Positions 2,921 to 52,351 are shown, counted from the first letter of the whole stretch. The stretch: 58,179 bases of DNA, filler included, from Nemertoderma westbladi (GCA_032718475.1; 2 parts of 2 records of this genome joined end to end with filler, not necessarily neighbours in it), one strand, 5' to 3'. Numbers and translations: made by a program. Notes: generated by a model from the letters alone, not told the origin.

Positions 2921-3152
2921 TGTTAGAGTAACCAATATGTAATTTAATCAGATTAATTATATTGATTAATTATAATATACAACTGATTAGTCAGCTGTGC
3001 AGTAGGAGATAATTGTATGTTACACAGCTGTGCAGTTAAAGGTTGAAGGACAGAATGCATAACGATGAAGAAGAATTAATTAATATATGAACTATAGTAA
3101 ACTACAGAAATTGTTTTCTGATCCTGTGAGTAATCCTCACATTTGGTGACCC
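2921..3152 (+). repeat. 5' LTR and tRNA-Trp-type PBS of Gypsy element 1
   Basis: LTR ends ..CCTCACA at 3141, followed by TTTGGTGACCCAG. The LTR start (TGTTAG at 2921) is uncertain because no second LTR survives. Confidence 0.6.
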
Positions 3153-3198
3153 AGCGATTTCTTTCTTTTTTTTTAAATAAATTAGTTGCTATTGTCCA

Positions 3199-5910
3199 AT
3201 GTCTTTCACTGCTTACCGTAAGGCTGATCTGGCTGAAGTCCTCCAGCAACTGAACAGTTCAGATCCCAACTACTCGCTACCCGACAAGAAAGCCGACATG
3301 ATCGATGAACTCAGCAAAGAGAATCCTGTCGCAATTAAGATTCTTCTGTCGCATATACAGAAGAGTCAAACGGTTCTACAGCCATCAGTACCTCATCCGC
3401 AAACACCACATTCGTATCCACAAAAGGTAAAACTACCCGAATTCTATGAGAAAGACGCTAGAGTATGGTTCCAACAAGTGGAAGCCGTGCTTGAAGGACA
3501 CCCAGCTGCAGCAATGAGATCCAATTTGTTGGCTGCTTTGCCAACAGAAACAATATTTGATGCTGGAGTCAACCTCAGTGATACTTTCGAGACGATTAAA
3601 GATAATATAATAAATCATTTGGCTGACAGCGACAACAAACGCCTGCGTAAATTACTTGCAGCTCAAGAGCTTGGTGACAGAAAGCCTTCAGCAGCCCTGC
3701 GGCAAATGCTGCGCCTAGCACCAGCAAATGAACAAATCGTACGTTTGCGTTTTCTAGAAATCTTACCATCCTCGGTTAGTATAGTTCTAACAACTTTGAG
3801 TGGTCTTTCACTGGAACAAATGGGTGATGTTGCTGATAAAATGATTGAGCAACAGGATTCCCAATCGTCAACTAGTTTATCCGCACCAATCCATCATCAG
3901 ACTGAAATCAACATGCTCCAGGAGTCGCAAAAGATCCTTGTCCAATCTCAGAAGTCACTCGCTGATCAAATTTCGCAGATAAACACGCAACTAAGAGACC
4001 TCTCAACACGCCGAGATGGAGATCGTTCCCGTTCTCGATACAACTCATCACGCTCTGGTTCTCGTTCAGCAACACCTCATCGTCAGCGCTCACATTCTCG
4101 CTCCCAATCTCGAGAATACAACCCAAATGGAGCCTGGTGTTACTACCATTACACTTATGGCAGAGAAGCATCCACGTGTCGACCGCCCTGTTCATGGCGC
4201 AATCTAACAAACCGACGTTGTGGAAATCCAGGTAACTCTGACAGTAATAATGAAAACAATAATACCGGTGGTAGTGATATTTGTAATATTCACGTAGAAG
4301 CTTTACCGGTAGGAGAATTTCTAATTGATTCTGGCAGTGGTTATTCTATATTACCCCAGAAATTCCAATCCCTTCTGAAAAATAAATCCCAGAATAATGT
4401 CCTGTTGAAAGCAGCTAATTATTCTGAAATACGAAATTATGGGAGCGGAATACTTGAATTTTATATTCCAACCCTTAGAAAGGAACCATTTACTTGGAAT
4501 TTTATAGTGGCAGACGTAACACAACCCATTCTTGGAATTGATTTTCTCCGACACAATAATATCAATATTGATTGTGCGAGTAAACAAATTTATTTCAAAA
4601 CTCCAATGAATATGTCGATTCAAAACGAAAACAATAAACCCAATAAAAATCAAGAACAACCCTCAAAAATCAGCAACCAGAATCAATCCAACTTTATCTA
4701 CAGTACGACTTCTAACATGACCAGAACCCCACATATATTTTCAGTAACTGGTGGCAGGAATTATCGTTTAAAGCTAATAGTGATGATTTTAATGATTCTC
4801 TCTATTTTTTACCCTTTAGCATATTGTGTTAGCAAGTTACCGTTATCCATATTTGCCTTACCTTTCTTCTTTATATTTGGTACTGGTGCGATATTAGGTT
4901 TAACATTGGATTGTTTTACAATTGGTGATGAACTATTTGGTTATGCAGGACCGCCCAAAGTAGACATTAGTAGTAAATCGTCTGATTTTTGGTTTCCAAT
5001 TTCAACTGTTTCAAGTAAGGAAATTAATAAGGAAATTTCAAGAGTTAACTTTATCAATTCAAATACCAAAACAAGGTTAAATAAATTGTTAAATAAGTAT
5101 GATACTGTTTTCTCTCTGAGATGGAAAAACGAACCAGTAAAACATAATATAGAACACCATATAATCACTAGCGGACCTCCGTGTTTTTCTAGACCGCGTA
5201 GATTATTTGGTGAAAAATTAACCGCCGCAACTTCCGATTTTAATAATTTAGTTAAAAATAGCATTGCAGAACGCAGCGATTCGCTATGGTGTTCTCCGTT
5301 GCACATGGTACCAAAATCTGATGGTACTTGGAGAAATTGTGGTGATTATTGTCGCTTAAATCGGCAAACTGTTTATGACTGCTATCCTATGCCAAACATA
5401 GCAGACATAAGCAATAACTTTAGGGGCTGCACCGTCTTTACAAAAATAGATCTCGAAAAATCTTTTTACCAAATTCCTATGGCGGATAATGACGTAAAAA
5501 AAACTGCTATTACTACAACTTTTGGTATGTTTTGTTTTAAAAGAATGCCTTTTGGTCTCAAAAACGCAAGCCAAACCTTTCAACGATTAATAGATACTGC
5601 TCTTTCAGGTTTACCTTTTGCTGTGGGTTACATTGACGATATATTAATCGCAAGCCCAAACGAAGAACAACATTTTAAGGACCTGGAGGCAGTACTAAAA
5701 CGATTTGAGAGTTACGGTTTGAAAGCCAAAATATCAAAGTGTTCATATTTTCAAACTGAAGTGCAATTTTTAGGTTACGTGATATCTAAAAATGGCGTTT
5801 CTCCAAATCCATCCAAAATTCAAGCGATAAAAGAAGTACCACAACCTAAATCTATTTCTTCATTGCGTCGATTTTTAGGAATGTGTGGATTTTACAATAA
5901 TAAGATATAA
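3199..5910 (+). CDS. 3'-truncated Ty3/Gypsy (CsRn1-clade-like) Gag-PR-RT polyprotein
   Basis: LPEFY..WFQQVE and LGDRKPS Gag motifs, CHCC knuckle WCYYHYTYGREASTCRPPC, protease FLIDSG, RT MPFGLKNA/YIDD. Homology stops at FLGMCGFY (~5895); no RNase H, integrase or 3' LTR. Confidence 0.92.
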   Translation: MSFTAYRKADLAEVLQQLNSSDPNYSLPDKKADMIDELSKENPVAIKILLSHIQKSQTVLQPSVPHPQTPHSYPQKVKLPEFYEKDARVWFQQVEAVLEGHPAAAMRSNLLAALPTETIFDAGVNLSDTFETIKDNIINHLADSDNKRLRKLLAAQELGDRKPSAALRQMLRLAPANEQIVRLRFLEILPSSVSIVLTTLSGLSLEQMGDVADKMIEQQDSQSSTSLSAPIHHQTEINMLQESQKILVQSQKSLADQISQINTQLRDLSTRRDGDRSRSRYNSSRSGSRSATPHRQRSHSRSQSREYNPNGAWCYYHYTYGREASTCRPPCSWRNLTNRRCGNPGNSDSNNENNNTGGSDICNIHVEALPVGEFLIDSGSGYSILPQKFQSLLKNKSQNNVLLKAANYSEIRNYGSGILEFYIPTLRKEPFTWNFIVADVTQPILGIDFLRHNNINIDCASKQIYFKTPMNMSIQNENNKPNKNQEQPSKISNQNQSNFIYSTTSNMTRTPHIFSVTGGRNYRLKLIVMILMILSIFYPLAYCVSKLPLSIFALPFFFIFGTGAILGLTLDCFTIGDELFGYAGPPKVDISSKSSDFWFPISTVSSKEINKEISRVNFINSNTKTRLNKLLNKYDTVFSLRWKNEPVKHNIEHHIITSGPPCFSRPRRLFGEKLTAATSDFNNLVKNSIAERSDSLWCSPLHMVPKSDGTWRNCGDYCRLNRQTVYDCYPMPNIADISNNFRGCTVFTKIDLEKSFYQIPMADNDVKKTAITTTFGMFCFKRMPFGLKNASQTFQRLIDTALSGLPFAVGYIDDILIASPNEEQHFKDLEAVLKRFESYGLKAKISKCSYFQTEVQFLGYVISKNGVSPNPSKIQAIKEVPQPKSISSLRRFLGMCGFYNNKI

Positions 5911-10600: not shown

Positions 10601-11541
10601 CGGAGACTATTACAGTATTAAACCTGGAACGAAGACGGCGGAATCTATAGGCCTAAACCTGGAAGAATGCGAACAAGGCCACTCTGAAGTTAGACAAGAC
10701 TGGTTTGTGAGATTAACTTGCCAATACTAACTCAATACAATTTGCTTTCTTCGAATTCCTAATAATATATTTTAATCTTAATAATAATTATTCAACATCA
10801 ATTATTTTATAAGTCTTGTCAATGTATAAGATTGCTAATGACTAAAGAGCTAACTTTAGGAAAATCTGCCTTATATTTTTAGAATTATTATAATTAATTT
10901 TGTTATGTTTATAATGAATTGTATCTTTTGACAGACTACTTGATGTGCGACCGTGATAATAAAATTAAATGGTGCCGAAATATTTTCACTTATTGCAGTA
11001 GGGGGGGGGGGGGGGGGGGGCAATCAATATTCTTCCCTCTCCATGTGAAAATCGACGCAAATAACAGCTTGTTTACTACTAAAATAAAACTGCATCATGT
11101 TCTATGGGAAAAAACATTATAGGGGAAACTTTAGCAAGTTGTGTTTATTTGAGCCGATAGACAAGATTACATGTTTACCAAGTTTGGTATAATTTAGTCA
11201 AAGATTGAATGAGTTACGATTTTAAATTATCAGTGTAGGGTGAAGGCGGCGGGCCAGGATTCAGTTATACTTGAATAAAGAATAGTGATTAAACCAAGGG
11301 ATACGCGATATATGACACTGCTGTTTAAGTTCATTGAATGACTGTTGATTTCGAAACATTTAATTCAAAACTATATAAAATGTTAATATAATGTTGGATT
11401 TTTTTTTTTTAATAATTAACAGATGAATTACATTTCATTAATTTATTTTTTTATCTAATCACATTATTAAATAACGAAGCACAGAAGTAATACTAAGATT
11501 GAATATTGAATTGAAGGTACAGTACCGAATTGAATATTTGA

Positions 11542-11734
11542 ATGGGAGAATCTTTTAGGCTCGTTAAGCCAAGGAATGCCTGTTCACCACCATGGGTGAT
11601 CTTCCACAGTAAACCCGTCCACTCTGTTTCCCAAGTTGCCTTGGTTCCCAATCGACCACTGAAGGATGAAAGCCAGGGTTGGGCTAGGCTGCAGCACCGT
11701 GCCCAAACAGTACTGCCCCATCTAGGGATCGAAC
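11542..11734 (-). mobile_element. 5'-truncated tRNA-derived SINE
   Basis: B-box GTTCGATCCC at the 5' end on the minus strand. 13-bp TSD ATTGAATATTTGA (11529-11541, 11735-11747). Absent from copy B. Confidence 0.75.
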
Positions 11735-11749
11735 ATTGAATATTTGAGA

Positions 11750-12160
11750 TTGCATAAGATAGAGTATTGAATATTGAATATCTTCGGCCGTCATCCCGTT
11801 GGTGACTCCATTGGCAACCATTTCGACAGTTTCGATTGGTTTCGGCTCTTCAGTCCCCGACTAGACCGATGGTCGGCGTGGTTGCTGTCCCCATGACTGA
11901 GGCTGCATTACCAACCAAAATTGCCATCTCCAGGTGCTGGAGCAGAAACTGGTGTAACCGCGGTTCGTGGGTGGCACTGTGGAGACGAGCCCCGATCTCC
12001 CCGAGGAAGGTGGGTGGATGTCTCAAAGGCCACGGGGTGAAAGAAATGGCCCCGGTCCATTAGGTCGCGATACTTAAGAGTTTTTAATGCGCTCCGCCCC
12101 CTCATCTGAGTGCCCCCCGGCAATGATGGTTTGTTGAAGGTGGCTGGGGGCCAGTGGATC
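11750..12160 (-). pseudogene. 3' fragment of a CRE-like non-LTR retrotransposon (restriction-like endonuclease C-terminus)
   Basis: Frameshifted translation DPLAPSH..AE..K..KYRDL..FHPVAFET..FLLQHLEMAILVGNAASVMGT matches the CRE C-terminal pattern, followed by a TATTCAA-repeat tail. Confidence 0.65.
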
Positions 12161-12345
12161 TAGTAATAATTAACGCAAAGATATGATTAGGTAAACCTAC
12201 GTGATATTAGTTTCTCAAACCAAACCTATCCATCCATTGACGTCCAAATATATCCAATTTCTCAATCCATACTAATCCGTATGTAATAATGTACACTGTA
12301 ATGCAATAATGTCAATGTCCAACCAAACAATGCGTTGAGTGTTAT

Positions 12346-15812: not shown

Positions 15813-17552
15813 ATGTCTGAGTCGAAGGTTCAACTTCCTTCCTCTGAGGTCTCCTCGAATATTGGCCAACCGCAACACAGCGGCCAGACATCCAAAGACA
15901 GCAGATGGAGCCTAGAGGACTTCGATATCGGAAAACCGCTGGGAAAAGGTAAATTTGGAAACGTATACTTAGCTAGAGAGAAGCGCCACAAATTCATAGT
16001 CGCGCTAAAAGTTATATTTAAAAGCCAGTTGGCCAAGTCCGGTGTTGAACATCAATTGAGACGGGAGATTGAAATCCAAGCGCATTTGCGACACGAAAAC
16101 ATTCTGAGGTTGTACGGATATTTCTACGACGAGAAACGTGTTTATTTAATCCTAGAATACGCGCCTAAAGGTGAGTTATATAAACACCTGAGTAGCCAAC
16201 CCTTGAAACGGTTGGATGAGGCTTACTCCGCCACTCTGCTGCTACAAGTAATTTCCGCTCTAAAATATTGCCACGATAATAAAGTTATCCATCGGGACAT
16301 AAAACCCGAGAATCTTCTCCTCGGGATCTACGGGGATATAAAGATAGCGGATTTCGGTTGGAGCGTCCACGCTCCGTCGTCCTCCCGTCGAACTCTCTGC
16401 GGAACGTTGGATTATCTTCCGCCCGAGATGATTGCCAACGAAGATCACGACGAGAAGGTGGATCTCTGGTGCATCGGGATCCTGTGCTTCGAGTTCATCG
16501 TCGGTAAACCCCCGTTCGAGGCGTCGGATTCGGACGGAACGTACAGTCGAATCCTCCGGGTGGATCTCCGCTTCCCGTCGTTCGTATCCGAAGGAGCCAA
16601 GGATCTCATCCGCGGGCTGCTAAGGCGGAGACCCAAAGATAGAATCACGTTGGAGGAAGCCGCCAGGCATCCGTGGATAGTGGCAAACGCGACCCCGATA
16701 GCGCAGATGAGAGAGCAAACACTCGCCAAGTCCCAACAAGAACAGCCAGCAACCAGGGTTCAACAACTGCAGGCTCCGCAGCCAGTGACCAATACGCAAC
16801 AGCAAACAGCCAAGGTTCAACAACCGCAGGCACCACAGCCAGTGAAAAATACGCAGCAGCCAACAGCCAAGGTGATCATGGCTCAACAGCCACATCAATC
16901 AGTGACCATGGCCCAACAGCCACATCAACCAGTAACCATGGCCCAACAGCCACATCAACCAGTGACCATGGCCCAACAGCCACATCAACCAGTGACCATG
17001 GCCCAACAGCCACATCAACCAGTGACCATGGCCAAACAGCCACATCAACCAGTGACCATGGCCAAACAGCCACATCAACCAGTGACCATGGCCCAACAGC
17101 CACATCAATCAGTGACCATGGCCCAACAGCCACATCAACCAGTGACCATGGCCCAACAGCCACATCAACCAGTGACCATGGCCCAACAGCCACATCAACC
17201 AGTGACCATGGCCCAACAGCCACATCAACCAGTGACCATGGCTAAACAGCCACATCAACCAGTGACCATGGCCAAACAGCCACATCAACCAGTGACCATG
17301 GCCCAACAGCGACATCAACCAGTGACCATGGCCCAACGGCCACATCAACCAGTGACCATGGCCCAACAGCCACATCAACCAGTGACCAAGTTCCATCAGT
17401 CGCATCAGCCAGCAGCTAGGGGTCAACAGCCACATCAACCCGTTACCATGGTCAAACAGCGACCAGTGGTCAGAGCTCAACAACCAATGGCCCGGGCCCA
17501 ACCACAACAATCCGTTTATAGGCCCCAACAAACATCTACAACGCAAAGGTGA
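15813..17552 (+). CDS. AURKA: Aurora kinase (Aurora A-like), intronless, with long Q/P/H repeat C-terminus
   Basis: [58 protein letters not shown] carries the Gly typical of Aurora A (Asn in Aurora B). The A versus B assignment is tentative. Confidence 0.93.
16878..17447 (+). repeat. Coding 30-bp tandem repeat ([10 protein letters not shown]) x17 plus degenerate units
   Basis: In-frame array within the Aurora ORF. Confidence 0.95.
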
Positions 17553-25209: not shown

Positions 25210-26616
25210 TCAGCCTGACCCGGGGCGGTTTGGCAGCGCCGTGGGTGACTCTGCGGAATTCCGAGTCCGTCCGGAGTCGGAACGGAAAATAGCCGAGTTG
25301 GTTGGTGTGGAACGATCGGAACGCAAGGAATCGGAGTCGGAACGTGCGTCGGTCTGGACGGAACGTACACTACCGTTGGCCGCAGCCACGGGATGACTTG
25401 CACCGGAGTCGGAATTGTACGAATTGGTGGACACTTTTGTCCTTCCGGAATCCGCTTTTGTTCGCACCGACTCCGGCGGATTGACGGATTGTTGTTTCTC
25501 GCGCGTCCGCGATATAACTCGCCCGTGCTCGTCGGTAATGTTATATAGCCCCGGCTCGTCGTCGCTATCTACATCCGGTGTGACGTACACAACCTCGAGG
25601 ATGACGTCACCAACCTGATCAGACAGAATGTTGACGGCTTCTGTGTGTCTGGCTTCGCGAAGATCAACACCGTTCACCGACAGTATAGCATCTCCCACAA
25701 ACAGGTTTTGGGAGCGGTGTGCGGGTAGCCCGGAATGTACCTCGGATATAAGCACAGGGACTCCGTGCTCCTTCCCTCCCGTTATGCTCATTCCGAGCCC
25801 CTCCTCTGCCCGTTTGTGTAGGGTAACCCATCGAACCTCGCCGATTCCCTGTCTGTTCCGCATCTGCCCTGCGGGGGGCGGTGCCTGCAGACGATTCTTG
25901 GGACTGGCTCGACCTCGACATGCCTTTATCACGGTTTTGTGGCGGTGTAGATGGATTTCGGCTTCCAGTTGGTTCCATAAACGGTCGTGCTCGGGGCCTC
26001 TAAGATCCCGACCCAGAAGTTGAATCTGTTGGATTCTCCCCGCCAACTCCTTGTCGAGGTACTTAGCCGCCAGTCGCGCTCCATACAACTCCCCTTGTAT
26101 TGCCACAGTGTGCTGCCTGAGCTCCAGATTCTCCGCCATCAACTCATCGACTTCCGACTGCAACCGACTCTCACGGAACTTATCCACTTTAAAGCTGTGA
26201 CTCTCCGCTTCTAGTTTTCGAAGAATGCTCTCGGAGTCTGAATCCTTAGACGTTTTATTGTGCAACTGGAGTTGCAATGAGTGTAACTGTAACATTTGGC
26301 GTTGCAGTTCTTTCTGAAGAACTTCCACCAAAGCAGTAGAATCCAAAGAGTTCGATTTCGACTTATTTAAATCTCTTTCAAGTTTCAGATTCGTCTGGAA
26401 CACCGTCTGTGATCGGTGACACAGTTGCGCGAATGCGGCACTTAACGAGGTCATCTTCTGTCGTCCATCGTACGTTATCTCGCATTGGTCCGGGTCAATG
26501 TCTCCCAGAAGAATATCCAAGTCGACGAATGCTTTATCGAAATCTTTTTCTAAGGATTCTAGCCATTGGAATAGATTTAACGATCCCCCAACATTGTTAT
26601 TAACATTAGTGGCCAT
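25210..26616 (-). CDS. GOPC: Golgi-associated PDZ and coiled-coil motif protein (PIST/CAL), intronless
   Basis: [73 protein letters not shown], and PDZ motif [21 protein letters not shown]. Confidence 0.95.
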
Positions 26617-39401: not shown

Positions 39402-40580
39402 CTAAACTCTAAGCTGCCCCTCGATCTTCCATTGATTCTTCCATGAGGCACTGTCCCGCTGTCCCCCTGTGCGTCCTCTTATCTGACGACCCACTTTCCT
39501 CGCCAATTCCAACTCACCAGGAATTGGCTCTCCCTCTTCCGCAACCCTAAAGTCGGGTCTCTCCGCTGCCTTCTTAACTTCCTCGCCACTTGGCATCAAA
39601 ATGCCACCTCCCACTTTGTTGTCTCCCGGCGGCAGAATGAAAAGAAAGTGAAAGAATAGGCAAAACAGAAGGTACAATAATAGTCCTATCCCTTTCCATC
39701 CTGTCTTCCTACTCGAGCTCCCCCTTGTCGGTATGCCTCTCAACCGGACCGGCATCTCTTCCGGACACTCCTCTGGACACTCCTTCCGACACTCCTTCCG
39801 ACACTCCTCCGGGCACTCCTCCGGAGTGTTGTCCTCCGGACATCTCGCCGTCCGCTCCTCTCCATCTCCATACCGATACTTGCTGGGATATCCATTCTCC
39901 TCCGCCCACTCTCTTACTTCTACTTCCCCATCTGGCTCATCTACCACCTCCGGTTTCTTATCTTCGTCCTCTGTGTCTACGGTGCCTGGTAACATGCACC
40001 CTGATGTCTCCGTCACTCTGGATGGAATCTTGGTTTTAACTGGGCCGCTAAGCGTCCATCCGAATGGCGTGAGGATCGCCGTCGGGTCCTGCTGCCTGTC
40101 TTCGCCGAAGACCGTCTGTGTTCTCTCGTGGGCCGTCGGGCAGTCCATTCCTACTATGATGGATACCTTCCTAACGTCCACCTCTGGTATTGAGAAATCG
40201 ATACCGTCCAGGAATGTATATTGTTCGACTTCGATGTTGGTTGGTCGCCTGGCGTTGATATTTATCGATTCTATCACGTGGATGGGGTCGATGGTCGCCC
40301 CATAGTCGCATCCCGGTGCAATCGCTGATATCCTGCACCGCCCCGTCCTCATCTCCAGGACCTCATCTTTACTTGAGACGGTAGTTACCGCCATTCTATT
40401 CGGCCTCGTCTTTAGCCCTATCTCTTCGGCCACCCAGTTCTCCACCAGCGTGAAGGCTGCTCCGCTGTCGACCAGCATTAATGTCGTTACTGATCGACCG
40501 CCCTCTCCTGATATCTTCACTGGTACTACCCCGAGTAGTACTTTTCTCTTCTTTCTTGCCACTGTCGTGCTTGTAGCCAT
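39402..40580 (-). CDS. BEL/Pao aspartic protease with atypical C-terminal extension
   Basis: VLLGVVPVKI..LVDSGAAFTL, IIVGMD, PTAILTPFGWTLSGP, followed by acidic/PEEC repeats and a hydrophobic stretch in place of RT. Confidence 0.8.
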   Translation of the reverse strand: MATSTTVARKKRKVLLGVVPVKISGEGGRSVTTLMLVDSGAAFTLVENWVAEEIGLKTRPNRMAVTTVSSKDEVLEMRTGRCRISAIAPGCDYGATIDPIHVIESININARRPTNIEVEQYTFLDGIDFSIPEVDVRKVSIIVGMDCPTAHERTQTVFGEDRQQDPTAILTPFGWTLSGPVKTKIPSRVTETSGCMLPGTVDTEDEDKKPEVVDEPDGEVEVREWAEENGYPSKYRYGDGEERTARCPEDNTPEECPEECRKECRKECPEECPEEMPVRLRGIPTRGSSSRKTGWKGIGLLLYLLFCLFFHFLFILPPGDNKVGGGILMPSGEEVKKAAERPDFRVAEEGEPIPGELELARKVGRQIRGRTGGQRDSASWKNQWKIEGQLRV

Positions 40581-41848
40581 TGTTTGGCCTCCAGTCTCGT
40601 TATCTCCTGTGCTGTTTCTCTACACTCTCCGGATCTGTGTCCTTCTACCACACATCGATGACATAGTCCGTTTGCGTCTGTGTAGGCTATACGATCTTGT
40701 TTGGGCAACGCTTGCCAGTGCTTACAACTCATGGTCTTATGGGTTCCGTCCCGATGTAATTGACATTCGAATCCTGGATTATAGCGTTCCCTATATAGTC
40801 CTTCACGTATCGCGCGTAGGTTTATATCTACCGATTTAGTGTTTTGGTTGTCTGTACTCGGCCTACTGGGTATGTTGGGATTATGTTTATTTATGGTGTT
40901 ATTTTCTTTCTGTCCCTGCCACGGTGTGGCCCTACTCCCAGCTAACTGTGGGCTTGTAGCCCCCTGTGTGGCCGCATGTGGTAGCGACTGTCTTACTCTC
41001 GAGAATGGATCTGTCGGATTATGTTCGGGTCTAGGCCTGTTGTATTCGGTCTTTGGCGCCTTCCCCAAACTATCCTCACTATAGACTGGGTCTGTAATCA
41101 ACTCGGCTTCGTAGTTGAGGAAGTTTGACATTTCCTCCAGCCCCGGTTCCGCACCTTTCTTCTCTCGAGTGGAGAAGGCGATCTTCCTCCACTTGCTCCG
41201 CAGCCAGATCGGCAGTGCCTGCGCTATCGTGGTGATGTTATTAGATGCGTTGAGTTCGTATGGCGCGTCTAGCGTCTTTAACACGATTAACGCCTTCTCG
41301 ACCTTGTTCGCAAAGGTCTTTATGCTAACGGGGTTGTCCTGTAGGCCACCCGATGTTATACCTCTCAGGGTTTGCCGGATGATCTTGGCTGGGTGTCCGT
41401 ATTCCCTGTCTAGCGCCCGCCATGCAGTCGTGAAGCCGCCCTCGATGCCCTGGTACTGCCTCACGATGTCGTATGCTGGGCCTCCTGTATACACTTGTAG
41501 ATATTTTAGGCACTCCGCCTGCGTCAAGTTCTTACTTAATATCTCGTTGCTGTACATGCGCCGAAATTGCAGGTATTCTTCCGGCCTACTTCCGTCGAAT
41601 TTAAATGGCTCGACTGGTGGTAACTCGATCCTGGTCTTTAATGCATCGATTAGCGTCGCCATTCCCATCGCCTGTGCTTCCAATGGGTTCGAGGGATGCT
41701 GTACAGATTCTCCTATTGGGTGCGATCCGTTCGTCCTATCTGCTGTTGATCTTGTTTGTTGCGTCGGATATATCATTGGGGGTAACGGCCCCCTCCATAT
41801 TTCCGTGTCGCACGACCTGTTCTCGTCCAGGGGGTTCGATGTTCTCAT
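40526..41848 (-). CDS. BEL/Pao Gag core with Zn knuckles
   Basis: LPPVEPFKFDG..YLQF, KYLQVYTGGPA, ALDREYGHP, CQLH..H..C and CHRC..GH..C. Upstream Gag frames (41889-43696) are broken at poly-G runs. Confidence 0.85.
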   Translation of the reverse strand: MRTSNPLDENRSCDTEIWRGPLPPMIYPTQQTRSTADRTNGSHPIGESVQHPSNPLEAQAMGMATLIDALKTRIELPPVEPFKFDGSRPEEYLQFRRMYSNEILSKNLTQAECLKYLQVYTGGPAYDIVRQYQGIEGGFTTAWRALDREYGHPAKIIRQTLRGITSGGLQDNPVSIKTFANKVEKALIVLKTLDAPYELNASNNITTIAQALPIWLRSKWRKIAFSTREKKGAEPGLEEMSNFLNYEAELITDPVYSEDSLGKAPKTEYNRPRPEHNPTDPFSRVRQSLPHAATQGATSPQLAGSRATPWQGQKENNTINKHNPNIPSRPSTDNQNTKSVDINLRAIREGLYRERYNPGFECQLHRDGTHKTMSCKHWQALPKQDRIAYTDANGLCHRCVVEGHRSGECRETAQEITRLEAKQWLQARQWQERREKYYSG

Positions 41849-43701
41849 TGCTGTTCGAGTATATTGTTGATATTGTAATGGGGGAATGTCACCCTGTCCC
41901 CCCCCCCCCCCCCCCCCCCACCGGTATGTTTGGTACTGGGGTTGATGTTAATATATTGGGGCCCATACATCTATCTGCAATAACTCTCCCCTCCCCTGGA
42001 TATATGTTATGTCCCTGTGTATTATAGTCATGCTGCTGTGCCGGTACCGATATAGGCCTATCTACTTCTCGCCTACCTACCGGTATGTACTCCGCGACTT
42101 CCGGGTTTAATCCCGTCGTCCGCGCTACCCTATCGCCTACTCTATCTCTCCCAGCATGGCCTATAATAGTATGTGCAGTAAGGCCTACAGTATGTCCTGC
42201 AGTCTGCATGTGCCCTTCCGAACCGAAGTTTAATTCTCCGAATCTCGAATCTCCCCGTACTACCGTACTCTCGATCGGCAGCTATATCCCGTCGGGAAGT
42301 TTCTCTTCGATCCCCTCTCCTGTTCTCGTCTTCGTATCGGTACTTCCTGTACCACTCTCCTGGCGTGCGGTGCGTTTCTCCGGGGCGACGGCAATCTCCC
42401 GAAGTTCGACCCCACTGACTCCCTAACTCCATCTCTACTATCGACGGCTCGCTATCCGTCCTCGCTCTCCGGTTGCTCCTAGCAACGACTCTTCTATTAT
42501 CTTCACTTCTTCTCTCTTCGACCTTCCGGTTAAACTCTACTAATCTTCTTCTATCGTCGACCTCTCGGTTAAACTCTACTAACATCTGACTACTCTGTCC
42601 GGTTGGACCTTCCTGGGGATACTCGCCATCCCCCTACTATACTCCGTCGTCGGGTGCCGCGGTTCACCTAACTTGCCCCGCGCATTATCCGCCGACGCCT
42701 GTGGGACATTCTCTGCCCCCCCCCCCCCCCCCCTTCTCGCTACTAATCTCTAGTGGTGGGGCGCCCGTAGCCCCCCCCCCCCACCCGCTACTTCTAACTT
42801 CACTATCTCTTACTACACTTCTGCGTCCCTCTTGTCAGACATTTTCTACCCCCCCTCTCTCGCCACTAATCTTCCGTGGTGGGGCGCCCGTAGCCCCCCC
42901 CCCCCCCCCCCCACCCGCTACTTCTAACTTCACTATCTCTTACTACACTTCTATGCCCCCCTTGTGGGGCATTCTCTGCCCCCCCCCTCTCTCGCTACTA
43001 ATCTTCCGTGGCGGGGCGCCCGTAGCCCCCCCCCCCCCCACTCGCCACATCTAACTTCACTATCTATCACTTCACTTCTACACCCCTCTCTAGTCGACAC
43101 ACTAACCCTACTGCGGCTGGGTCTATTCACCCCCGCCTCTCTCTCTACTACTACGTGGCCTACCAGGCCCACCTCGGGTTGACTCAACCCCGCTACTTCC
43201 TGCCTACTAACTACGTGGCCTACCAGGCCCTCATTGGGGTCTCTCGCCCCCGCTACTCTCTGCGCACTAACTGCGTTGCCTTGCAGGCTACCGTTGGCCG
43301 GACTACCTGTGTCTCCTACATTAGTATTAATAGCCCCATTGTTAATATTATTATTTTCTAAATTATTCAAATTATTTGAATTATTCTGTATATTTAAATT
43401 TAAATTATTCGGATTATTTTGAATAGTTGAATTAATATTATTATTTGGATTTAAATTTAAATTACTACTACCAGGTAAAATATTATTTGCTGCAATGAAA
43501 GTTTGATTAGAATTATCCACTATGGTACTATTAATATTAATGTTATCTACTGTATTATTATTACCCCCCCCCCCCGCCTGTACGGTCACACCAGTCTTGG
43601 GTCTGTCGTGCGGTCCCTGTAAGTGGAGTATTAATAAATGTTTCCCTAACTCCTGTCTCCTCGTAAATACTCGAGCCAGTCTCGCTCTCTGATAGCCCCA
43701 T

Positions 43702-46700
43702 TATAAGACTGACTAGTCTCATAAAATAAAAACAAAGGTTTTCTGTTAACTAGTGAATGAATTTATTACATTAAGAATAGTGGTATATGATACAATACAA
43801 GGCCAAAGGTTAAATGTGTGTTAGCTCCGTGTACTGTATGAATACTCATAGTTACATGATAATTAATTATTGATTGCGGTAATTAGATATTGACATATCA
43901 ATTCTACTGTACACTGTCATATAGTTAGTCTTACATAACTCCCTTTCTTAAAAAGCGGAGCACTAATATAAATTTGGAAGTAATACAATATATTTGTTTC
44001 TAGATTACACATGATATCGTCACAAAATAGGAAAATATTATTCAGATATTCACTAATTATGTTAAATAAGATTTAAATACGATTAAGTTAAATTCAATTC
44101 CATATTAACAATACATATATAATACGCACTGCATTAAAGAAAAAAATGTAATTTAAAAATATGAAATTATAATTTGAATGTAACACGCTTATTTAATTTT
44201 ACTTGAGTTTCATTTTTAGCCTCACTTTCTATAACTGGTTTCACCCGGTCTAGAGAAATTACCTCGGGTGTATTGTGTCGTTGAATGGTGACGGTTTTGT
44301 CACCCAATTGTATTACTGGGTATGGTCCGAGATAGCAAGGTTTCAGTGATCCACGTTTAATGGGGTCTCTCAACCAAATCTGCTTCGCATATTTCAGTGA
44401 AGTCGGAACATAGGATTTAGATTTATGAACTCTTACCGGTGGAATGAAAGAATCAACTTTATTATAGAGCTTAGAAACGAAGTCTGGCAAATCGGTTAAT
44501 TTCTCAGGTTCGAAGAATTGTCCGGGTAGATATAACTCAGTTCCGTAGAGAAGCTGTGATGGGGAGTAACCATGGCAACCAGCTGCGGATCTAATTCCAA
44601 GAAGTACTAATGGCAATTCGTTGAACCATTTTTCGTTATTACATTTCGCTCGAAGTGAGTTTTTAAGTTGCCTGTGAAACCTTTCTACAAGACCATTGCA
44701 AGCAGGATGGTATGCAGTTGTCCTCGCACGTTCAATTCCTAGTTGATTTGTTAAAATTCTGAATAACCTCGACTCAAATTGAGATCCTTGATCTGTAATT
44801 ATTTTACGTGGGATACCGAAACGACTAATCCACGAATCCAGAAATGCATTAGCTATACTCTCAGCGGAAATAGATCGTAGGGGCACAACTTCTGGCCAGC
44901 GAGTAAACCGATCGACCGCAGTGAATAGATATCTGTGTCCACATGAAGATGGCAATGGGCCGACTATATCCAGGTGAACTGTATCTAGACGCGACAAAGT
45001 TGGAATAGTTCCAATGGGCGGTTTAGTATGAAGAGAGATTTTTGACTTCTGACATTCAAGACATTCCCGTGCCCATTCTTTTATTTGACGATTCATTGCG
45101 GGCCAAATATATCGCGCGCATATTAGTTTCCGTGTTTCTTCAGGACCGGCATGAGATAGATTGTGAAAAGTGTGAAAAATTTTCTTTCTGAGTTTAGTTG
45201 GTAAGTATGGTCTAAGATTTTCACCAGAGTTGTCATAGTAAACAGTTTTGCCGTTTTGTTTCAGCTGTTTTAAGGGCAATGTTGTTTTAGCAAAGAATTG
45301 CTGCAACGAATTATCTTCATACTGATAGTCAGATAATTCCTCAAAATTATCTAACGAAATGGCCGCTAGAGGGCGTGATAGGGCATCAGCAACTATATTT
45401 TCTGAACCAGCTATGTATTTAATTGTGCTGTCAAACTCGGAAATGTAGGAAAGCCAACGAGCCTGCTGCGGACTTGGATTTTTCATATTGAGACAGTTCA
45501 AAAGTGGTTTGTGGTCCGTCAATATAGTGATATTCTGTCCAAGCAACCATTCATGATGCTTTAAAGCAGAGAATATCGCTAAAAGTTCTCGATCGAATGT
45601 TGATTTTTGACATTCATTTGGCGTTAGTTTTTTAGAGTAAAATGCTAAAGGTTCGGAATGGCCATTTACGGTTTGATTAATCACTGCGCCGATGGCGTAA
45701 TTCGATGCATCGGTGGTAACCACAATAGGTGCGTCTTTCTGAGGAAATGCCAAGGTGACTGCGTTGGATAGAGCTTGTTTCAATGAATTAAATGCGAATC
45801 TTTCATCTGGAGTAAATTCAATATCAGCACTCTTTAATGTATTTCTTGTTAGATCAGTTAAGGGAGCAGCTATTGTAGAAAATTTTGGTACAAAGCGGTG
45901 ATAGAAACCACAAGTACCGAGAAAGCGTCGGAGCGAAGCAACTGTTTTCGGTTCTGAAAAATTTCTAACTGCTTCCAATTTAGTATCAATGGGGCGAACT
46001 CCATGTTTCGAAATTTCGTAACCTAAAAATTTGACTTCATTTTTGAAGAATGAGCACTTCGAGATTTTTGCCTTTAATCCGTAGCGTTTCAAACGTTCGA
46101 GAACTGCTTCAACATCTCTGTAATGTTGTTCAGGATTTTGACTCGCAATTAAGATGTCATCTATATATCCCACAGCAAATTTAACGTCATATAATACCAT
46201 ATCTATGAGCCTTTGAAATGACTGACTTGCGTTTCTTAATCCGAAAGGCATTCTACGATATGAAAACATACCAAACGGTGTAGTGATAGAAGTTTTGTTT
46301 ACATCTTCATCTGCTACAGGAATTTGATGAAATGCTTTAGCTAAATCAATTTTTGTGAAAATTGTACAACCTCGAAAATTATCTGTTATATCGGCCATGT
46401 TGGGCATTGGGTAGTTGTCAGGCACAGTCTGCTTATTTAAATTTCTATAATCACCACAGGGCCTTATAGAACCGTCTGCTTTTAATACTGTATGCAGCGC
46501 AGAACTCCAAGGTGATTCACTCCGCTCAATAATTCTGTTGCGAAGTAAGATGTCAAATTCATTACGTACAGATTCTAATCGACTTCCAAACAATCGCCTG
46601 GGTTTTGAGTAACAAGGCGGGCCTGTAGTTATAATATGATGCTTAACTGGATGCTTAATGGGATCTGCTGCAGAAATTTCGCTGAAAACTGACTTATATT

Positions 46701-48829
46701 CACACAATAAATTTTTAACTTGGGGATTTTGTACATTGTATAAGTTCATGTCTGTCGTGGCTTTTATAAAATTAACTTTATACGTCCCTGTGCTACCGAC
46801 TGCACTTTTGTCACTTGTAATACCAATAACACTTACAAAACATAATAATATACCAAAGATAAGAAAAAGTTGCGATAGGAAAGATCGATTAGATATGAAA
46901 ATAAATGGACAACTAGCAACAAAAAGCAAAATAAGCAAAATATGTTTCAACAAAAATATAGAAGATTTATTAGATTTGCGAACAGACGCACTACTAAAAG
47001 TTTCAGAATAATTACTAGAATCGTGATTTATACCATTGATATTTGTATTTCTAGTTTCCATAAAGATACGTCCGTTCTTACAATCAATATTTACTTTATA
47101 ATGCCGCAAAAAATCCAAACCCAAAATAGGTTGACTCACATCAGCTACTATGAATTTCCACGAAAATTTCCTAGCAGATAAACTCGGAATGGAAAAATTT
47201 AAATTTCCACAACCGTAGGTTTTGATATTAGACGAATTGGCGGCTGTTAAAGTAGTAAGTAAATTATCAGAAGTAGATTCTAACAAATGTGAGTAACATT
47301 TAGGTACAATCGAAAAGTCACTGCCAGAATCTACTAAAAATTGATCAACAGGATCTGCCTTTACATTTATGGAGTAAATTTCATTATTATTATTAGCACT
47401 ATTACTATTATTTGCATTAAATCCTATATTATTATCTGAGTTACCTGGATTATTCGGTCCCTTTCGCATTTGGTAATTGCATGGTGGTTGACATTTGGCA
47501 GCGTCTTGTCCAAACTGAAAGTGGTAATAGCACCATGATCCTTTAGGATCGTAGCTGCGACTATGTGACTGCGATCGATAGGGACCACGCGACTGGGATC
47601 GATTACGAGAATAACCTCCCCTAGATGGCGTTCGGCGATAACGGGAACGACCGCTCCGAGATGATGAAAGATCTTTTAGCTGAGCGTTGATCTCAGCAAC
47701 TTGATCGCTGAGCAACTTTTGAGACTCAATCAGAAGTTTCTGTGACTGTTGTAGAATATTAAGTTCGGAGACCTGTGCAACTGGACATGGATTGGTAGAT
47801 TGTGATTGCTGTTGCTCGATCATTTTGTCGGCAATTTCTGCAAGCTTCTCTAAAGACAGATCACCGAGAGTACTTAGAACAATGCTGATAGTTGGCGGTA
47901 GGATCTCCAGGAAACGGAGACGTATGATTTGATCATTACCAGTACCTGGAGCTAGGCGCTGCATCTGCCTAATGATGGCAGAGGGTTTGCGGTCCCCGAG
48001 CTCCTGGGCCTCAAGTAGTTTTCGCAATCGTCGCTCATCACTATCGGCTAAATGTGATATGATGTTCTCTTTGATAGTATTGAATGAGTCTTCCACATTA
48101 ACACCTGCATCGAGAATAATTTCCGTTGGAAGAGCCGCTAGTAAATTGGATTTCTTTGAGTGGTTGGTCTGTCCGTGAAGCACAGCTTCAATCTGTTGAA
48201 ACCATGTTCGAGCGTCTTTGTTGTAAAATTCGGGTAATCGAGTTTTTAGAATAATGGCTGTTGGATCACCTCTCCCTGAAGACTCGTCATGACCGGCATC
48301 CACAATCTTTTGGAGAATCATGCGCACGGCCGAAGGATTTTCTTTTTCCAATTCGAGAATTATTTCGGCCTTCACTTTTGGGGGTTCGTAGTTAGGAACG
48401 TGAGAATTGAGTTGAACCAGAGTTTCTATTAATTCAGCCTTCCGAAATTTCTGAAGTTGTTCGGGTTTCGACATTATTACGTTGGTTTTGTACAGTAGAT
48501 TTTATAGCAGTTTTTAATAGTGATTGTAATAAAAAAAATGGTAAATGTTTTTTTAAATATAATTTAGGCTGTTTGTTTTAAGTCCGGGTCACCAATATAA
48601 GACTGACTAGTCTCATAAAATAAAAACAAAGGTTTTCTGTTAACTAGTGAATGAATTTATTACATTAAGAATAGTGGTATATGATACAATACAAGGCCAA
48701 AGGTTAAATGTGTGTTAGCTCCGTGTACTGTATGAATACTCATAGTTACATGATAATTAATTATTGATTGCGGTAATTAGATATTGACATATCAATTCTA
48801 CTGTACACTGTCATATAGTTAGTCTTACA
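43702..48829 (-). mobile_element. Intact Ty3/Gypsy (CsRn1-clade-like) LTR retrotransposon, element 2
   Basis: Apparently identical 234-bp LTRs (43702-43935, 48596-48829), TSD CCCAT, PBS TGGTGACCCGG (tRNA-Trp type), PPT AAGAAAGGGAG. Confidence 0.97.
44167..48474 (-). CDS. Single-ORF Gag-PR-RT-RNaseH-IN polyprotein (1435 aa)
   Basis: CHCC knuckle, FLVDSG, YIDD, TTDASNYAIG, HHCC (H..H..CLEC), DDE core (HLDIVGP, TDQG, VER). Confidence 0.97.
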   Translation of the reverse strand: MSKPEQLQKFRKAELIETLVQLNSHVPNYEPPKVKAEIILELEKENPSAVRMILQKIVDAGHDESSGRGDPTAIILKTRLPEFYNKDARTWFQQIEAVLHGQTNHSKKSNLLAALPTEIILDAGVNVEDSFNTIKENIISHLADSDERRLRKLLEAQELGDRKPSAIIRQMQRLAPGTGNDQIIRLRFLEILPPTISIVLSTLGDLSLEKLAEIADKMIEQQQSQSTNPCPVAQVSELNILQQSQKLLIESQKLLSDQVAEINAQLKDLSSSRSGRSRYRRTPSRGGYSRNRSQSRGPYRSQSHSRSYDPKGSWCYYHFQFGQDAAKCQPPCNYQMRKGPNNPGNSDNNIGFNANNSNSANNNNEIYSINVKADPVDQFLVDSGSDFSIVPKCYSHLLESTSDNLLTTLTAANSSNIKTYGCGNLNFSIPSLSARKFSWKFIVADVSQPILGLDFLRHYKVNIDCKNGRIFMETRNTNINGINHDSSNYSETFSSASVRKSNKSSIFLLKHILLILLFVASCPFIFISNRSFLSQLFLIFGILLCFVSVIGITSDKSAVGSTGTYKVNFIKATTDMNLYNVQNPQVKNLLCEYKSVFSEISAADPIKHPVKHHIITTGPPCYSKPRRLFGSRLESVRNEFDILLRNRIIERSESPWSSALHTVLKADGSIRPCGDYRNLNKQTVPDNYPMPNMADITDNFRGCTIFTKIDLAKAFHQIPVADEDVNKTSITTPFGMFSYRRMPFGLRNASQSFQRLIDMVLYDVKFAVGYIDDILIASQNPEQHYRDVEAVLERLKRYGLKAKISKCSFFKNEVKFLGYEISKHGVRPIDTKLEAVRNFSEPKTVASLRRFLGTCGFYHRFVPKFSTIAAPLTDLTRNTLKSADIEFTPDERFAFNSLKQALSNAVTLAFPQKDAPIVVTTDASNYAIGAVINQTVNGHSEPLAFYSKKLTPNECQKSTFDRELLAIFSALKHHEWLLGQNITILTDHKPLLNCLNMKNPSPQQARWLSYISEFDSTIKYIAGSENIVADALSRPLAAISLDNFEELSDYQYEDNSLQQFFAKTTLPLKQLKQNGKTVYYDNSGENLRPYLPTKLRKKIFHTFHNLSHAGPEETRKLICARYIWPAMNRQIKEWARECLECQKSKISLHTKPPIGTIPTLSRLDTVHLDIVGPLPSSCGHRYLFTAVDRFTRWPEVVPLRSISAESIANAFLDSWISRFGIPRKIITDQGSQFESRLFRILTNQLGIERARTTAYHPACNGLVERFHRQLKNSLRAKCNNEKWFNELPLVLLGIRSAAGCHGYSPSQLLYGTELYLPGQFFEPEKLTDLPDFVSKLYNKVDSFIPPVRVHKSKSYVPTSLKYAKQIWLRDPIKRGSLKPCYLGPYPVIQLGDKTVTIQRHNTPEVISLDRVKPVIESEAKNETQVKLNKRVTFKL

Positions 48830-48834
48830 CCCAT

Positions 48835-50112
48835 CTGCGCCAGTTCCAGTCGGCGCTTCTGTTTGGCTTGATATTGAATAAGCCCCCTTAGGCGGGCATG
48901 CAAATCATCCCGCACACGCTTCCCCGTTGCCTTTCTTTCTAGATCCTCCCGCGCACTCTGATCGGCTAATTCCACCTCTCTCGCAACTCTCTCCAGTCGT
49001 CTCGCCTCGCGCTCTTTTCGCTCGCTCTGCTCTCTCGCCTCACGCTCTTCACGTCTATTCTGCTCTCTCGCCTCACGCTCTTCACGTCTACTCTGCTCTC
49101 TCGCCTCGCGCTCTTCTTGCTCCTTCCTTTCTATCCTCCCTATTTCCTCGCACTCCTTAAAGCTTCTCGCGGCCTTCTCGGCCCTCTCTCTGTTCTCTCT
49201 AACCAGTTCCATTTCCTCCTCTAATAGCGCACTCCCCTCCTCTAACTGTCTCTCTATTTCTCTCTGGTCTAGCGCCACCAGATCGAGTTGGCACGCCAGA
49301 TTTATTGCCGTCACCCGTCTTTCCTTTGCGGAGGATGTAGCAGACTTATCGGTTGTGACGGACTCTCTCTGCCCTCCCGTCCTACTGGCTTTCCCCCGCC
49401 TCCCGGAACTTCCTCTGACCGACGAGACCGAATCCTCGGGGTTAACCTCGGATTCGCCCTCCTCAGGTCTCCTCCAACCCACTAATTTTACTCCCCGGGC
49501 ATCGACTAAGTATGGCCCTACGTACACTACGCTAGGTTCCATACCCCTACATTCCCATAGTTCGAACAGTTCGCTGGCAACCCCTCTCGCTCTCTCATCG
49601 GCTAGTTCTCCCTGCCCAAAACGCATTAGGTAATCAAAATGTCTGTTCGACTCACCTAGTCGTTTCTTCAACTTCACCTCGTCTATCTTCGCCCCTCCTT
49701 TGTCCTCTCTCAGCTGCTTCCGGGTTGCGGCGTAGGCCCGTCGAAGCCGGTCGCTGACCCCGACGTCCTCGTCGCTGACATCTCCTCTATCTCTCCGGGT
49801 CCGGCGTCGTACCGGCGGCCCCACCGTCGCCGTTCCGGTGGGCCGTCCGTCGCCCTCGGCCTGTGGCTGGCCGGCGACATCGGCACGTCGACCGCTGTCG
49901 TGTGTCGACTCGTCTCTCCCTTCTCTCAACTCGTCTCTCCCTTCTCTCGACTCGTCTTCTGGTTGTAGACGGCCCCCATCATCTTTGGTTGCCGGATCGC
50001 CCGTTATCGATGGGTCCGGCGTCTTGGGTCTGTACCGTCGCGTCGCGGCCTCGCGGATCGTTAGGTCGCCGTCCGGGGTCCGCGGCGGTGTCGTTTCTCC
50101 TTCCCGACTCAT
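48835..50112 (-). CDS. N-terminal charged/coiled-coil part of BEL/Pao Gag, interrupted by the Gypsy insertion
   Basis: ORF starts ~90 nt after the 5' LTR and continues in frame (MGLSESETG..) at 43701 once the Gypsy is removed. Confidence 0.7.
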
Positions 50113-50939
50113 CTTTAGTCTTATCGGTGGATCGGTGGCTTTCAGTCAGTTCGGGCTGTTGGATTCTATTACTGTTAGGGCAGCTGCTAAGATTTTGTTA
50201 CTGTGACGGGATCCGAAAATCCCGATTTATCCGGTTGGTTTGTTCACACGTCCCCGCCGTGTATAAAAGAGTTATTAGAGTTCTTCCGTTGTTATTGATA
50301 TATGTATATGTGTATAAAGACATAGAATAAAGCAAGATAGCACAGTTGATGATAATACCGGTACTGATGGATGATGGTGGCGACGATGACGACGGTAACA
50401 AAAGTCACCATTCTGCCCTAGGTGTACTGAGATGACTGAAGTGATGATATGATACAGTGACTGGTAATATATATTTTACTGGTTGGCCGTATTACATTAC
50501 TCAGCCGATGCCTTCCCCCCATTGGCTAATAACTCACTTCTCACCCTCTCATCTCTCTGGGAGTGCCTCCCCCCGCTGCTGTCATTCCCTCTCTCTCAGA
50601 GGTGTAACCTCTGACCCCCATTATGCGTATGTCCTCTGGGGTTTCTTGTCCCCATCTCATCGGGGTGACACGAGGTTGATTGGCAATCAACCTCGTGTTC
50701 CCAATATTGCTTAAGGCGCTCTTTCCCACTTTATGGGGGTTGGTGTGGCGGAATTGAATACGCTCACACATTGACATTATTGCATTACAGTGTACATTAT
50801 TACATACCGGTACTGATTAGTATGGATTGAGAAATTGGATAGGCCTATATTTGGACGTCAATGGATGGTTAGGTTTGGTTTGGGAAACTAATATCACGTA
50901 GGCCTACCTAATCATATCTTTGCTGCGATAATTATTACT

Positions 50940-51390
50940 AGATCCACTGGCCCCCAGCCACCTTCAACAGACCATCATTGCCGGGGGGCACTCAGCTGAG
51001 GGGGCGGAGCGCATTAAAAACTCTTTTCACCCCGGGGCCTTTGAGACCTTTGGCCGCCCCGGTCTAGAGACATCCACCTTCCTCCAGGAGATCGGGGCTC
51101 TCTCCACAGTGCCACCCACGAACCGCGGTCACACCAGTTTCTGCTCCAGCGCCTGGAGATGGCAATTTTGGTTGGTAATGCAGCCTCAGTCATGGGGACA
51201 GCAACCACGCCGACCATCGGTCTATTCGGGGACTGAAAAGCCGAAACCAATCGAAACTGTCGAAATGGTTGCCAATGGAGTCACCAACGGGATGACGGCC
51301 AAAGATATTCAATATTCAATACTCTATCTCTGTATCTTATGCAATCTCAAATATTCAATTCGGTACTGTACCTTCAATTCAATATTCAAT
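50940..51390 (+). pseudogene. CRE-like 3' fragment inside TIR element copy B
   Basis: DPLAPSHLQQT..AEGAERIKN..FETFGRPG..FLQEIG..FLLQRLEMAILVGNAASVMGT plus TATTCAA tail. Confidence 0.65.
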
Positions 51391-52351
51391 CTTAGTATTA
51401 TTTCTGTGCTTCGTTATTTAATAATGTGATTAGATAAAAAATAAATTAATGAAATATAATTCATCTGTTAATTATTACAAAAAAAATCCAAAATTATATT
51501 AACATTTATATAGTTTTGAATTAAATGTTTCGAAATCAACAGTCATTCAATGAACATTTATACAGCAGTGTCATATATCGCGTATCCCTTGGTTTAATCA
51601 CTATTCTTTATTCAAGTATAACTGAATCCTGGCCCGCCGCCTTCACCCTCCACTGATAATTTAAAATCGTAACTCATTCAATCTTTGACTAAATTATACC
51701 AAACTTGGTAAACATGTAATCTTTGTCTATCGGCTAAAATAAACACAACTTGCTAAAAAATTCCCCCTATAGGCCTAATGTTTTTTCGTATAGAACAGGA
51801 TGCAATTTTATTTTTAATAGTAAATAAGCTGCTTTTGCGTCGATTTTCACCTGGAGAGGGAAGAATATTGATTGCCCCCCCCCCCCCCCCCCCCCCCTAC
51901 TTGCAGTTAAGTGAAAATATTTTGGCACCATTTAATTTTATTATCACGGTCGCGCATCAAGTAGTAGTCTGTCAAAAGATACAATTCATTATAAACATAA
52001 CACAATTAATTATAATAATTCTAAAAATATAAGGCAGATTTTCCTAAAGTTAGCTCTTTAGTCTTTAGCAATCTTATACATTGACAAGACTTTTAAAATA
52101 ATTGATGTTGAATAATTATTATTAAGATTAAAATATATTATTAGGAATTCGAAGAAAGCAAATTGTATTGAGTTAGTATTGGCAAGTTAATCTCACAAAC
52201 CAGTCTAGTCTAACTTTAGAGTAGCCTTGTTCGCATTCTTCCAGGTTTAGGCCTATAATTTCCACCGTCTCCGTTCCAGGTTTAATACTGTAATAGACTC
52301 CGTTATCCGTCTCGATCGCTTCGTTATGCACCATCTTACTGGGTTTAATAA

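Follow-up and report, generated by a model that had tools for sequence, protein, structure and literature searches.

Organisation of the locus

The window analysed here is a stretch of 58,179 nt from Nemertoderma westbladi (GCA_032718475.1), made of two records that are joined with filler and are not necessarily neighbours. It holds element A, a CsRn1-type Ty3/Gypsy long terminal repeat (LTR) retrotransposon, and element B, which belongs to a sister family. Both encode an insertion between protease (PR) and reverse transcriptase (RT) that contains a pair of strongly hydrophobic segments. The insertion is real and lineage-specific and is likely to be selected; according to hydropathy and structure prediction, the segment is probably a real membrane-embedded module.

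A first interpretation made from the DNA alone (the sequence-only reading) had proposed a two-segment hydrophobic hairpin with a basic N-flank and a short loop between PR and RT. This description holds: the peptide quoted is exactly aa 499-553 of a 1435-aa open reading frame (ORF), with RKSNK starting at 46980 (aa 499) on the minus strand. The hydrophobic pair of element A occupies 46816-46968, within an insertion of about 85 aa. Hydropathy was scored as the best 19-residue Kyte-Doolittle windows (KD19). The pair reaches 2.34 and 2.60, and the third-best window in the polyprotein is 1.41. Windows of at least 2.0 spaced 19-35 aa apart arose in 2/2000 shuffles of the whole protein and in 20/20000 shuffles of the linker.

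Membrane-helix calls combine hydropathy with AlphaFold2 secondary structure, and the hairpin itself is a prediction. The AlphaFold check that had been suggested for the polyprotein gave two helices at the pair in element A, aa 503-524 and 532-553, with a predicted local distance difference test score of 66-83 by block and low-confidence flanks. In the same model (aa 365-640), the region ahead of the insert matches the retropepsin fold. The helices of A and B have low hydrophobic moments (0.07-0.23). Within 24 residues, the N-flanks carry 3 K/R and 1 D/E in A, and 4 K/R and 0 D/E in B.

Comparison with domain and structure libraries gave little for the insert. Pfam returned two matches below cut-off for the insert of A (E 0.07) and none for that of B, and Foldseek against PDB and BFVD matched the protease alone. 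In the ESM Atlas only protease clusters were found; the best score of the insert (0.90, 101 shared features) is a lead at most.

The segment is also seen outside the assembly. Contigs from all four runs (three studies) cross the hairpin of element A without a gap; among the substitutions listed, three lie at 46955-46980 and none in 46816-46954. In run X4, one contig matches only 34 bases of helix 2 (46834-46867) and is unlike it on both sides, which may be chance or a third family. A slippery-type heptamer noticed by eye about 35 codons past the hairpin of A was dropped, as no counterpart was seen in B. Two antisense ORFs, one of 117 aa at 46658-47011 and the other of 121 aa at 4941-5306, lie at non-matching places and were treated as chance.

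Elements A and B

The sequence-only reading took element A to be young rather than decayed, and the identical LTRs and intact ORF agree with this. Contigs with the empty site skip 5133 nt, which is element A plus 5; contigs of three runs bridge this site. The domain order is PR-RT-RNase H-integrase (IN) with GPY/F, and there is no env and no chromodomain. The Pfam match to DUF7041 is slightly below cut-off; RT, RNase H and integrase are also found by Pfam. The primer-binding site (PBS) begins one base past the 5' LTR. One contig of run X4 skips 1194 nt (47343-48538), nearly all of it gag, and represents an internally deleted copy. The host of element A is a BEL/Pao-type repeat with a DUF1759 Gag and a protease (39402-43696 and 48830-50112).

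Element A shares with CsRn1, PwRn1 and AgCR the CHCC knuckle, the PBS, the TGT...ATA ends, the DSG/YxDD/DAS/GPY motifs and the absence of env, and with CsRn1 and PwRn1 the single fused ORF (PMC2582038). The traits given there for the clade are a CHCC Gag knuckle, a tRNA-Trp-type PBS, LTR ends TGT...AAA or TGT...ATA and a 4-bp target duplication. Element A differs from the clade in its 5-bp duplication (one insertion), and is therefore filed as CsRn1-type and not as a typical member. A second difference, shared by A and B, is the hydrophobic PR-RT insertion of 85-130 aa.

Element B, which is absent from the sequence-only reading, keeps its own pair in a diverged family. Its KD values are 2.50 and 2.02, and AlphaFold2 places helices at 519-544 and 550-577. 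A and B share 57% identity for Gag, 54% for PR and 64% for RT; despite this divergence in RT, the pair sits at the same place and spacing in both. The CHCC knuckle of B, C-x2-H-x9-C-x3-C, is at aa 314-331. Its linker is covered without gaps by contigs in two of the four runs. Some contigs in two runs continue past 5895, beyond the break in B, so longer copies of B exist. Run X6 (organism B) has no contig matching element B, which is not proof of absence.

Table 1. Positions of the features of elements A and B in the window
Feature	Position	Strand	Basis
Element A, CsRn1-type Ty3/Gypsy	43702-48829	-	single ORF and identical 234-nt LTRs
5' LTR of A, 234 nt, TGT...ATA	48596..48829	-	sequence
3' LTR of A, same sequence as 5' LTR	43702..43935	-	sequence
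Target-site duplication of A, 5 bp	43697..43701, twin 48830-48834		sequence and empty-site contigs
PBS of A	48583..48594	-	11/12 bases identical to the published tRNA-Trp-type PBS of CsRn1-like elements
gag-pol ORF of A, single, 1435 aa	44167..48474	-	Gag DUF7041, CHCC knuckle, PR, insert, RT, RNase H, IN, GPY
CHCC knuckle of A, C-x2-H-x9-C-x3-C, aa 315-332	47479..47532	-	sequence motif
Aspartic protease of A (DSG), retropepsin fold	47062..47364	-	AlphaFold2 model and fold match
Lineage-specific PR-RT linker insertion of A, about aa 484-566, edges approximate	46777..47025	-	linker comparison
Hydrophobic segment 1 of A, aa 503-527, predicted membrane helix, basic RKSNK before it	46894..46968	-	hydropathy, AlphaFold2
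Polar loop SNRS of A, aa 528-531	46882..46893	-	sequence
Hydrophobic segment 2 of A, aa 532-553, predicted membrane helix	46816..46881	-	hydropathy, AlphaFold2
RT core of A, aa 664-821	46012..46485	-	PF00078
RNase H of A, aa 887-1014	45433..45816	-	PF17919/PF17917
Integrase zinc finger and core of A	44704..45201	-	PF17921, PF00665
Polypurine tract of A, just upstream of 3' LTR	43939..43949	-	sequence
Element B, sister family, fused gag-PR-insert-RT ORF, 903 aa, broken at RT end	3199..5910	+	ORF, Pfam, hydropathy
PBS of B	3144-3155	+	10/12 bases match the printed tRNA-Trp-type PBS
Hydrophobic segment 1 of B, aa 523-544, predicted membrane helix, GGRNYRLK before it	4765..4830	+	hydropathy, AlphaFold2
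Hydrophobic segment 2 of B, aa 549-570, predicted membrane helix	4843..4908	+	hydropathy, AlphaFold2

Relatives and phylogeny

A total of 297 related proteins was fetched; linkers were measured in the 206 with both anchors, many of which are near relatives of each other and not independent, and the 91 without one anchor were excluded. Spacing between the PR and RT anchors has a median of 78 aa in the relatives (interquartile range 76-78), against 162 in A and 209 in B. The statement that PR-RT linkers are short thus applies within this clade; it fails for Ty3/Gypsy elements generally, where Ty3 J, dUTPase domains and the Ogre intron occupy the junction. Linker KD19 in the relatives has a maximum of 1.54, a mean of 0.56 and a standard deviation of 0.40, against 2.60 (A) and 2.50 (B). 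A membrane-like linker is found in none of the 206, which bears out the claim that such a linker is not routine in CsRn1-type elements, and no window of at least 2.0 occurs anywhere in the 297 proteins. With helices predicted, contigs free of gaps and the linker not routine, the proposed hairpin stands as far as it can be tested.

Phylogeny suggests that the gain lies on one small branch. The RT tree has 145 rows (drawn with IQ-TREE in quick mode, midpoint-drawn, no named CsRn1 reference, Shimodaira-Hasegawa-like approximate likelihood ratio test as the only support). It joins A and B as sisters (98), and the branch of 11 rows that contains them (98) has nine further rows, none with the pair. 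The simplest reading of this tree is a single gain before the split of A and B. Eight of the nine sister proteins begin 14-58 aa ahead of the protease motif and none has the Gag knuckle, while A and B are fused; these protein starts suggest that gag and pol are separate ORFs in the sisters. Gag-Pol fusion and the hairpin may therefore map to one branch.

Two further domains were observed in the sister elements. P0187 has a UPF0029 domain (PF01205, E 2e-25; aa 112-216) inside its PR-RT linker; going by the profile match, this is a second, unrelated capture at the PR-RT junction in one small clade. A PWWP domain, an unusual integrase tail, is present in six of the nine (P0182, P0183, P0185, P0186, P0014 and P0187; C-terminal position confirmed for two). 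Element A is without one.

No third family with a hairpin was found. Search hits include DUF7041 polyproteins of trematodes, cestodes and insects at 46-51%. A phmmer search against 1.84 billion representatives gave none among the best 150 of 3103 matches, in which no best stretch extends beyond query residue 146, and three word-seeded protein searches (1, 31 and the best 120 of 1314 matches) also gave none. In metagenome contigs, 13 loci were found, 12 with the PR motif, and by eye none has a hydrophobic pair; viral contigs gave 0 matches. Element A itself is without a match in the protein libraries, which probably cover its host lineage poorly, so that the absence of a third family is a weak negative.

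Selection on the insert

Base composition was compared by codon position between the hydrophobic core and PR plus flanks. At position 2, T is in excess in the core of both A (31/51 vs 50/179, p 3e-5) and B (28/52 vs 66/231, p 1e-3). At position 3 there is no excess (p 0.20 in A, 0.88 in B); at position 1, p is 0.09 (A) and 0.008 (B). The hydrophilic N-flank of A has T at 0.65 of third positions and only 0.16 of second positions, and in the core of B position-3 T is 0.38 against 0.40 in the flanks. Stop-free nucleotide shuffles of the cores yield a pair in 65/669 cases for A and 7/424 for B. The core of B has polar or charged residues at 2 of 47 positions, where 22% are expected (p 7e-4). Because T is in excess at position 2 and not at position 3, and both frames are open, selection at the protein level is the favoured explanation, ahead of a U-rich signal and of an intron of the Ogre type.

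Over the 47 core columns, the A/B alignment has a single 1-aa gap, whereas 16 and 25 columns of the flanks are gapped. No polar residue is conserved within the helices between A and B. In these two sequences, hydrophobicity, position and spacing are kept while individual residues are mostly changed.

Other features of the window

Two uninterrupted ORFs unrelated to the elements were noted. That at 15813-17552 (+) encodes a 579-aa protein kinase (PF00069), presumably Aurora-like, with a long C-terminal tail of decamer repeats; that at 25210-26616 (-) encodes a 468-aa PDZ protein, which we take to be GOPC/PIST-like. Inverted copies of a repeat of about 1.7 kb lie at 10552-12318 and 50768-52351 and are 89-100% alike in blocks. 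Tandem arrays, with units of 29 nt and 34 nt, lie from 28667 onwards and at 1036-2081.

Proposed role and alternatives

The preferred explanation, held tentatively at slightly less than an even chance, is that the two-segment insertion forms a membrane hairpin which tethers the fused Gag-Pol until protease frees Gag and RT-IN. A CsRn1-type lineage would have gained a PR-RT insertion of 85-130 residues with two strongly hydrophobic segments. The basic N-flank, a loop of 4-6 residues and two helices of about 22 residues are predicted to give a hairpin with both ends cytosolic. The polyprotein would thus be tethered to an internal membrane and concentrated in two dimensions, which would help the protease to dimerise there. 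Protease would then free Gag for assembly and cut RT-IN loose at [IVL]-x-x-[IVL] downstream of the hairpin. The tether would hold back the surplus RT-IN made by a frameshift-free element, and the hairpin would remain in the membrane as a by-product resembling Ty3 J. Since the insert lies in a single ORF, every Gag chain from unspliced RNA carries it.

The motif [IVL]-x-x-[IVL], a putative protease cleavage site, precedes the N-terminal helix of RT in ordinary linkers (77% and 59% of 179 rows). Both A and B retain it on the downstream side of the hairpin, so that a cut freeing RT is plausible. Ty1 and Ty3 supply precedents. A Ty3 fusion mutant is reportedly limited by capsid protein. Gag-Pol of Ty1 and Ty3 amounts to 5% of Gag (PMC4974528), and Ty1 RNA is described as being brought to the endoplasmic reticulum by the signal recognition particle, nucleating assembly sites (PMC3945221).

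Several observations weigh against a tether. RT-IN that stays tethered could not be enclosed in a capsid, and release would have to precede packaging; the anchor suggested by the sequence-only reading is plausible but meets this problem. On the translocon scale, with values that we assume, one helix of each pair is marginal (+1.4 and +0.7). The C-flank is basic in A and acidic in B. Seven other fused gag-pol relatives have ordinary linkers with no hairpin, it is protein starts that suggest two separate ORFs for gag and pol among the sisters, and the evidence as a whole comes from two families and one evolutionary event. A hydrophobic segment about 500 aa into the chain may also escape the signal recognition particle (PMC4517110).

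A further group of adverse figures includes several that also favour an alternative, in which the hydrophobicity simply follows from a U-rich stretch, produced by mutation bias or serving as an RNA signal, and the insert is an in-frame spacer that is tolerated and plays no part at membranes. Core identity between A and B (25%) is at flank level (26% and 30%), and the alignment score is reached by 123/5000 full shuffles and 1132/5000 block shuffles. Neutral codons at matching base composition would yield 45% F/L/I/M/V; 13 of the 24 F/L/I/M/V columns of A that are changed in B still hold one of these residues, which does not demonstrate column-wise constraint. The core of A is T-rich at silent sites (four-fold-site T 0.68, n=19), as is its N-flank (0.73, n=11), against 0.37 in RT, and its +1 frame is equally hydrophobic (2.69, with stops). 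This alternative is nevertheless unlikely: the core of B has no third-position excess of T and hardly any polar residue, the N-flank of A shares the T-rich third positions without the T-rich second positions, and stop-free shuffles seldom restore the pair.

Also unlikely is that cuts at both of its ends release the hairpin to act as a small membrane protein, either a class IIB viroporin-like protein or a fusogen, in env-free exit or cell-to-cell spread. The class IIB layout fits: two segments, a loop of 1-8 residues, cytosolic ends and an origin in a polyprotein, with one marginal helix and a Lys near the helix start (PMC4517110). One copy per Gag would be made. Env-less insect LTR elements are described as spreading via the small membrane protein sORF2 (PMC11952523). 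Against this, neither sequence, profile nor fold search matched the insert to viroporin or FAST proteins, the helices are weakly amphipathic and lack a conserved polar residue, and A/B conservation does not exceed the block-shuffle null. Hydrophobicity and spacing that are kept while residues change would suit a simple anchor rather than a channel, whose lining would need to be specific. Viroporin or fusogen function, the other half of the earlier proposal, draws no support from any result, and it is rather doubtful that the lineage encodes a protease-released two-helix 2B-like or fusogenic protein as an env-free exit route.

An Ogre-type intron between PR and RT, removed from some transcripts, is very improbable: A has 19 and B has 4 in-frame GT-AG pairs whose splicing would bring the linker back to ordinary length, and A has one GTAAGT at aa 547, but donors and acceptors are weak and at non-matching places, B has no GTRAGT, no listed DNA contig lacks the segment, and the Ogre intron separates two ORFs while the linkers of A and B are open, as in only 1/20000 and 0/20000 nucleotide shuffles, respectively.

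Comparison with known systems

Ty3 J is a dispensable piece of about 10 kDa. Like the insert of A and B, J is additional to the usual domains of a Ty3/Gypsy polyprotein and separates PR from RT (PR-J-RT-IN); no membrane character is stated where PMC5371799 describes it. The junction also takes foreign sequence in the bdelloid elements Juno, Vesta and TelKA and in basidiomycete elements, which have a dUTPase between PR and RT (PMC5408684), and Ogre has an intron there (PMC6317226). These inserts are a soluble enzyme or non-coding, whereas that of A and B is predicted to form a membrane hairpin, and Pfam gives it no match above cut-off. In Diaspora, a predicted transmembrane segment lies after pol (PMC1142308).

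The sORF2/FAST-like proteins of MDG1-group LTR elements are likewise small membrane modules in env-less elements. In contrast to the in-frame, internal, two-segment insert of A and B, sORF2 is encoded by a short ORF of its own; it is single-pass, has an ectodomain and is often N-myristoylated (PMC11952523). The insert departs from this layout of a single helix, an N-terminal ectodomain and MGxxxS/T. As described, the sORF2 survey filtered for short ORFs, and a module inside a polyprotein would escape it (PMC11952523). In architecture, the closest analogue is the class IIB viroporin 2B of poliovirus, which also has two helices, a short loop and cytosolic ends and follows a protease in a polyprotein (PMC4517110). 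The insert shows this layout by prediction; it differs from 2B in its low amphipathicity and has no sequence or fold match to it. The literature searched, which did not cover subscription papers, Repbase/GyDB entries or supplements, gave no description of a membrane hairpin placed between PR and RT.

Membrane functions of LTR retrotransposons have so far been sought in separate ORFs such as env and sORF2. If a protease-released membrane protein were encoded here, the PR-RT junction would be a site for membrane modules that ORF-level env and sORF screens miss. A membrane hairpin retained within Gag-Pol would mean that these elements can anchor a polyprotein in the way that plus-strand RNA viruses do. 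The anchor would serve either for membrane-sited processing and assembly, with Pol rationed in the absence of a frameshift, or for carrying a viroporin-like protein that is hidden in the polyprotein. Hydropathy of PR-RT linkers can be screened cheaply in libraries of elements, and the insert is a small fragment that lends itself to testing.

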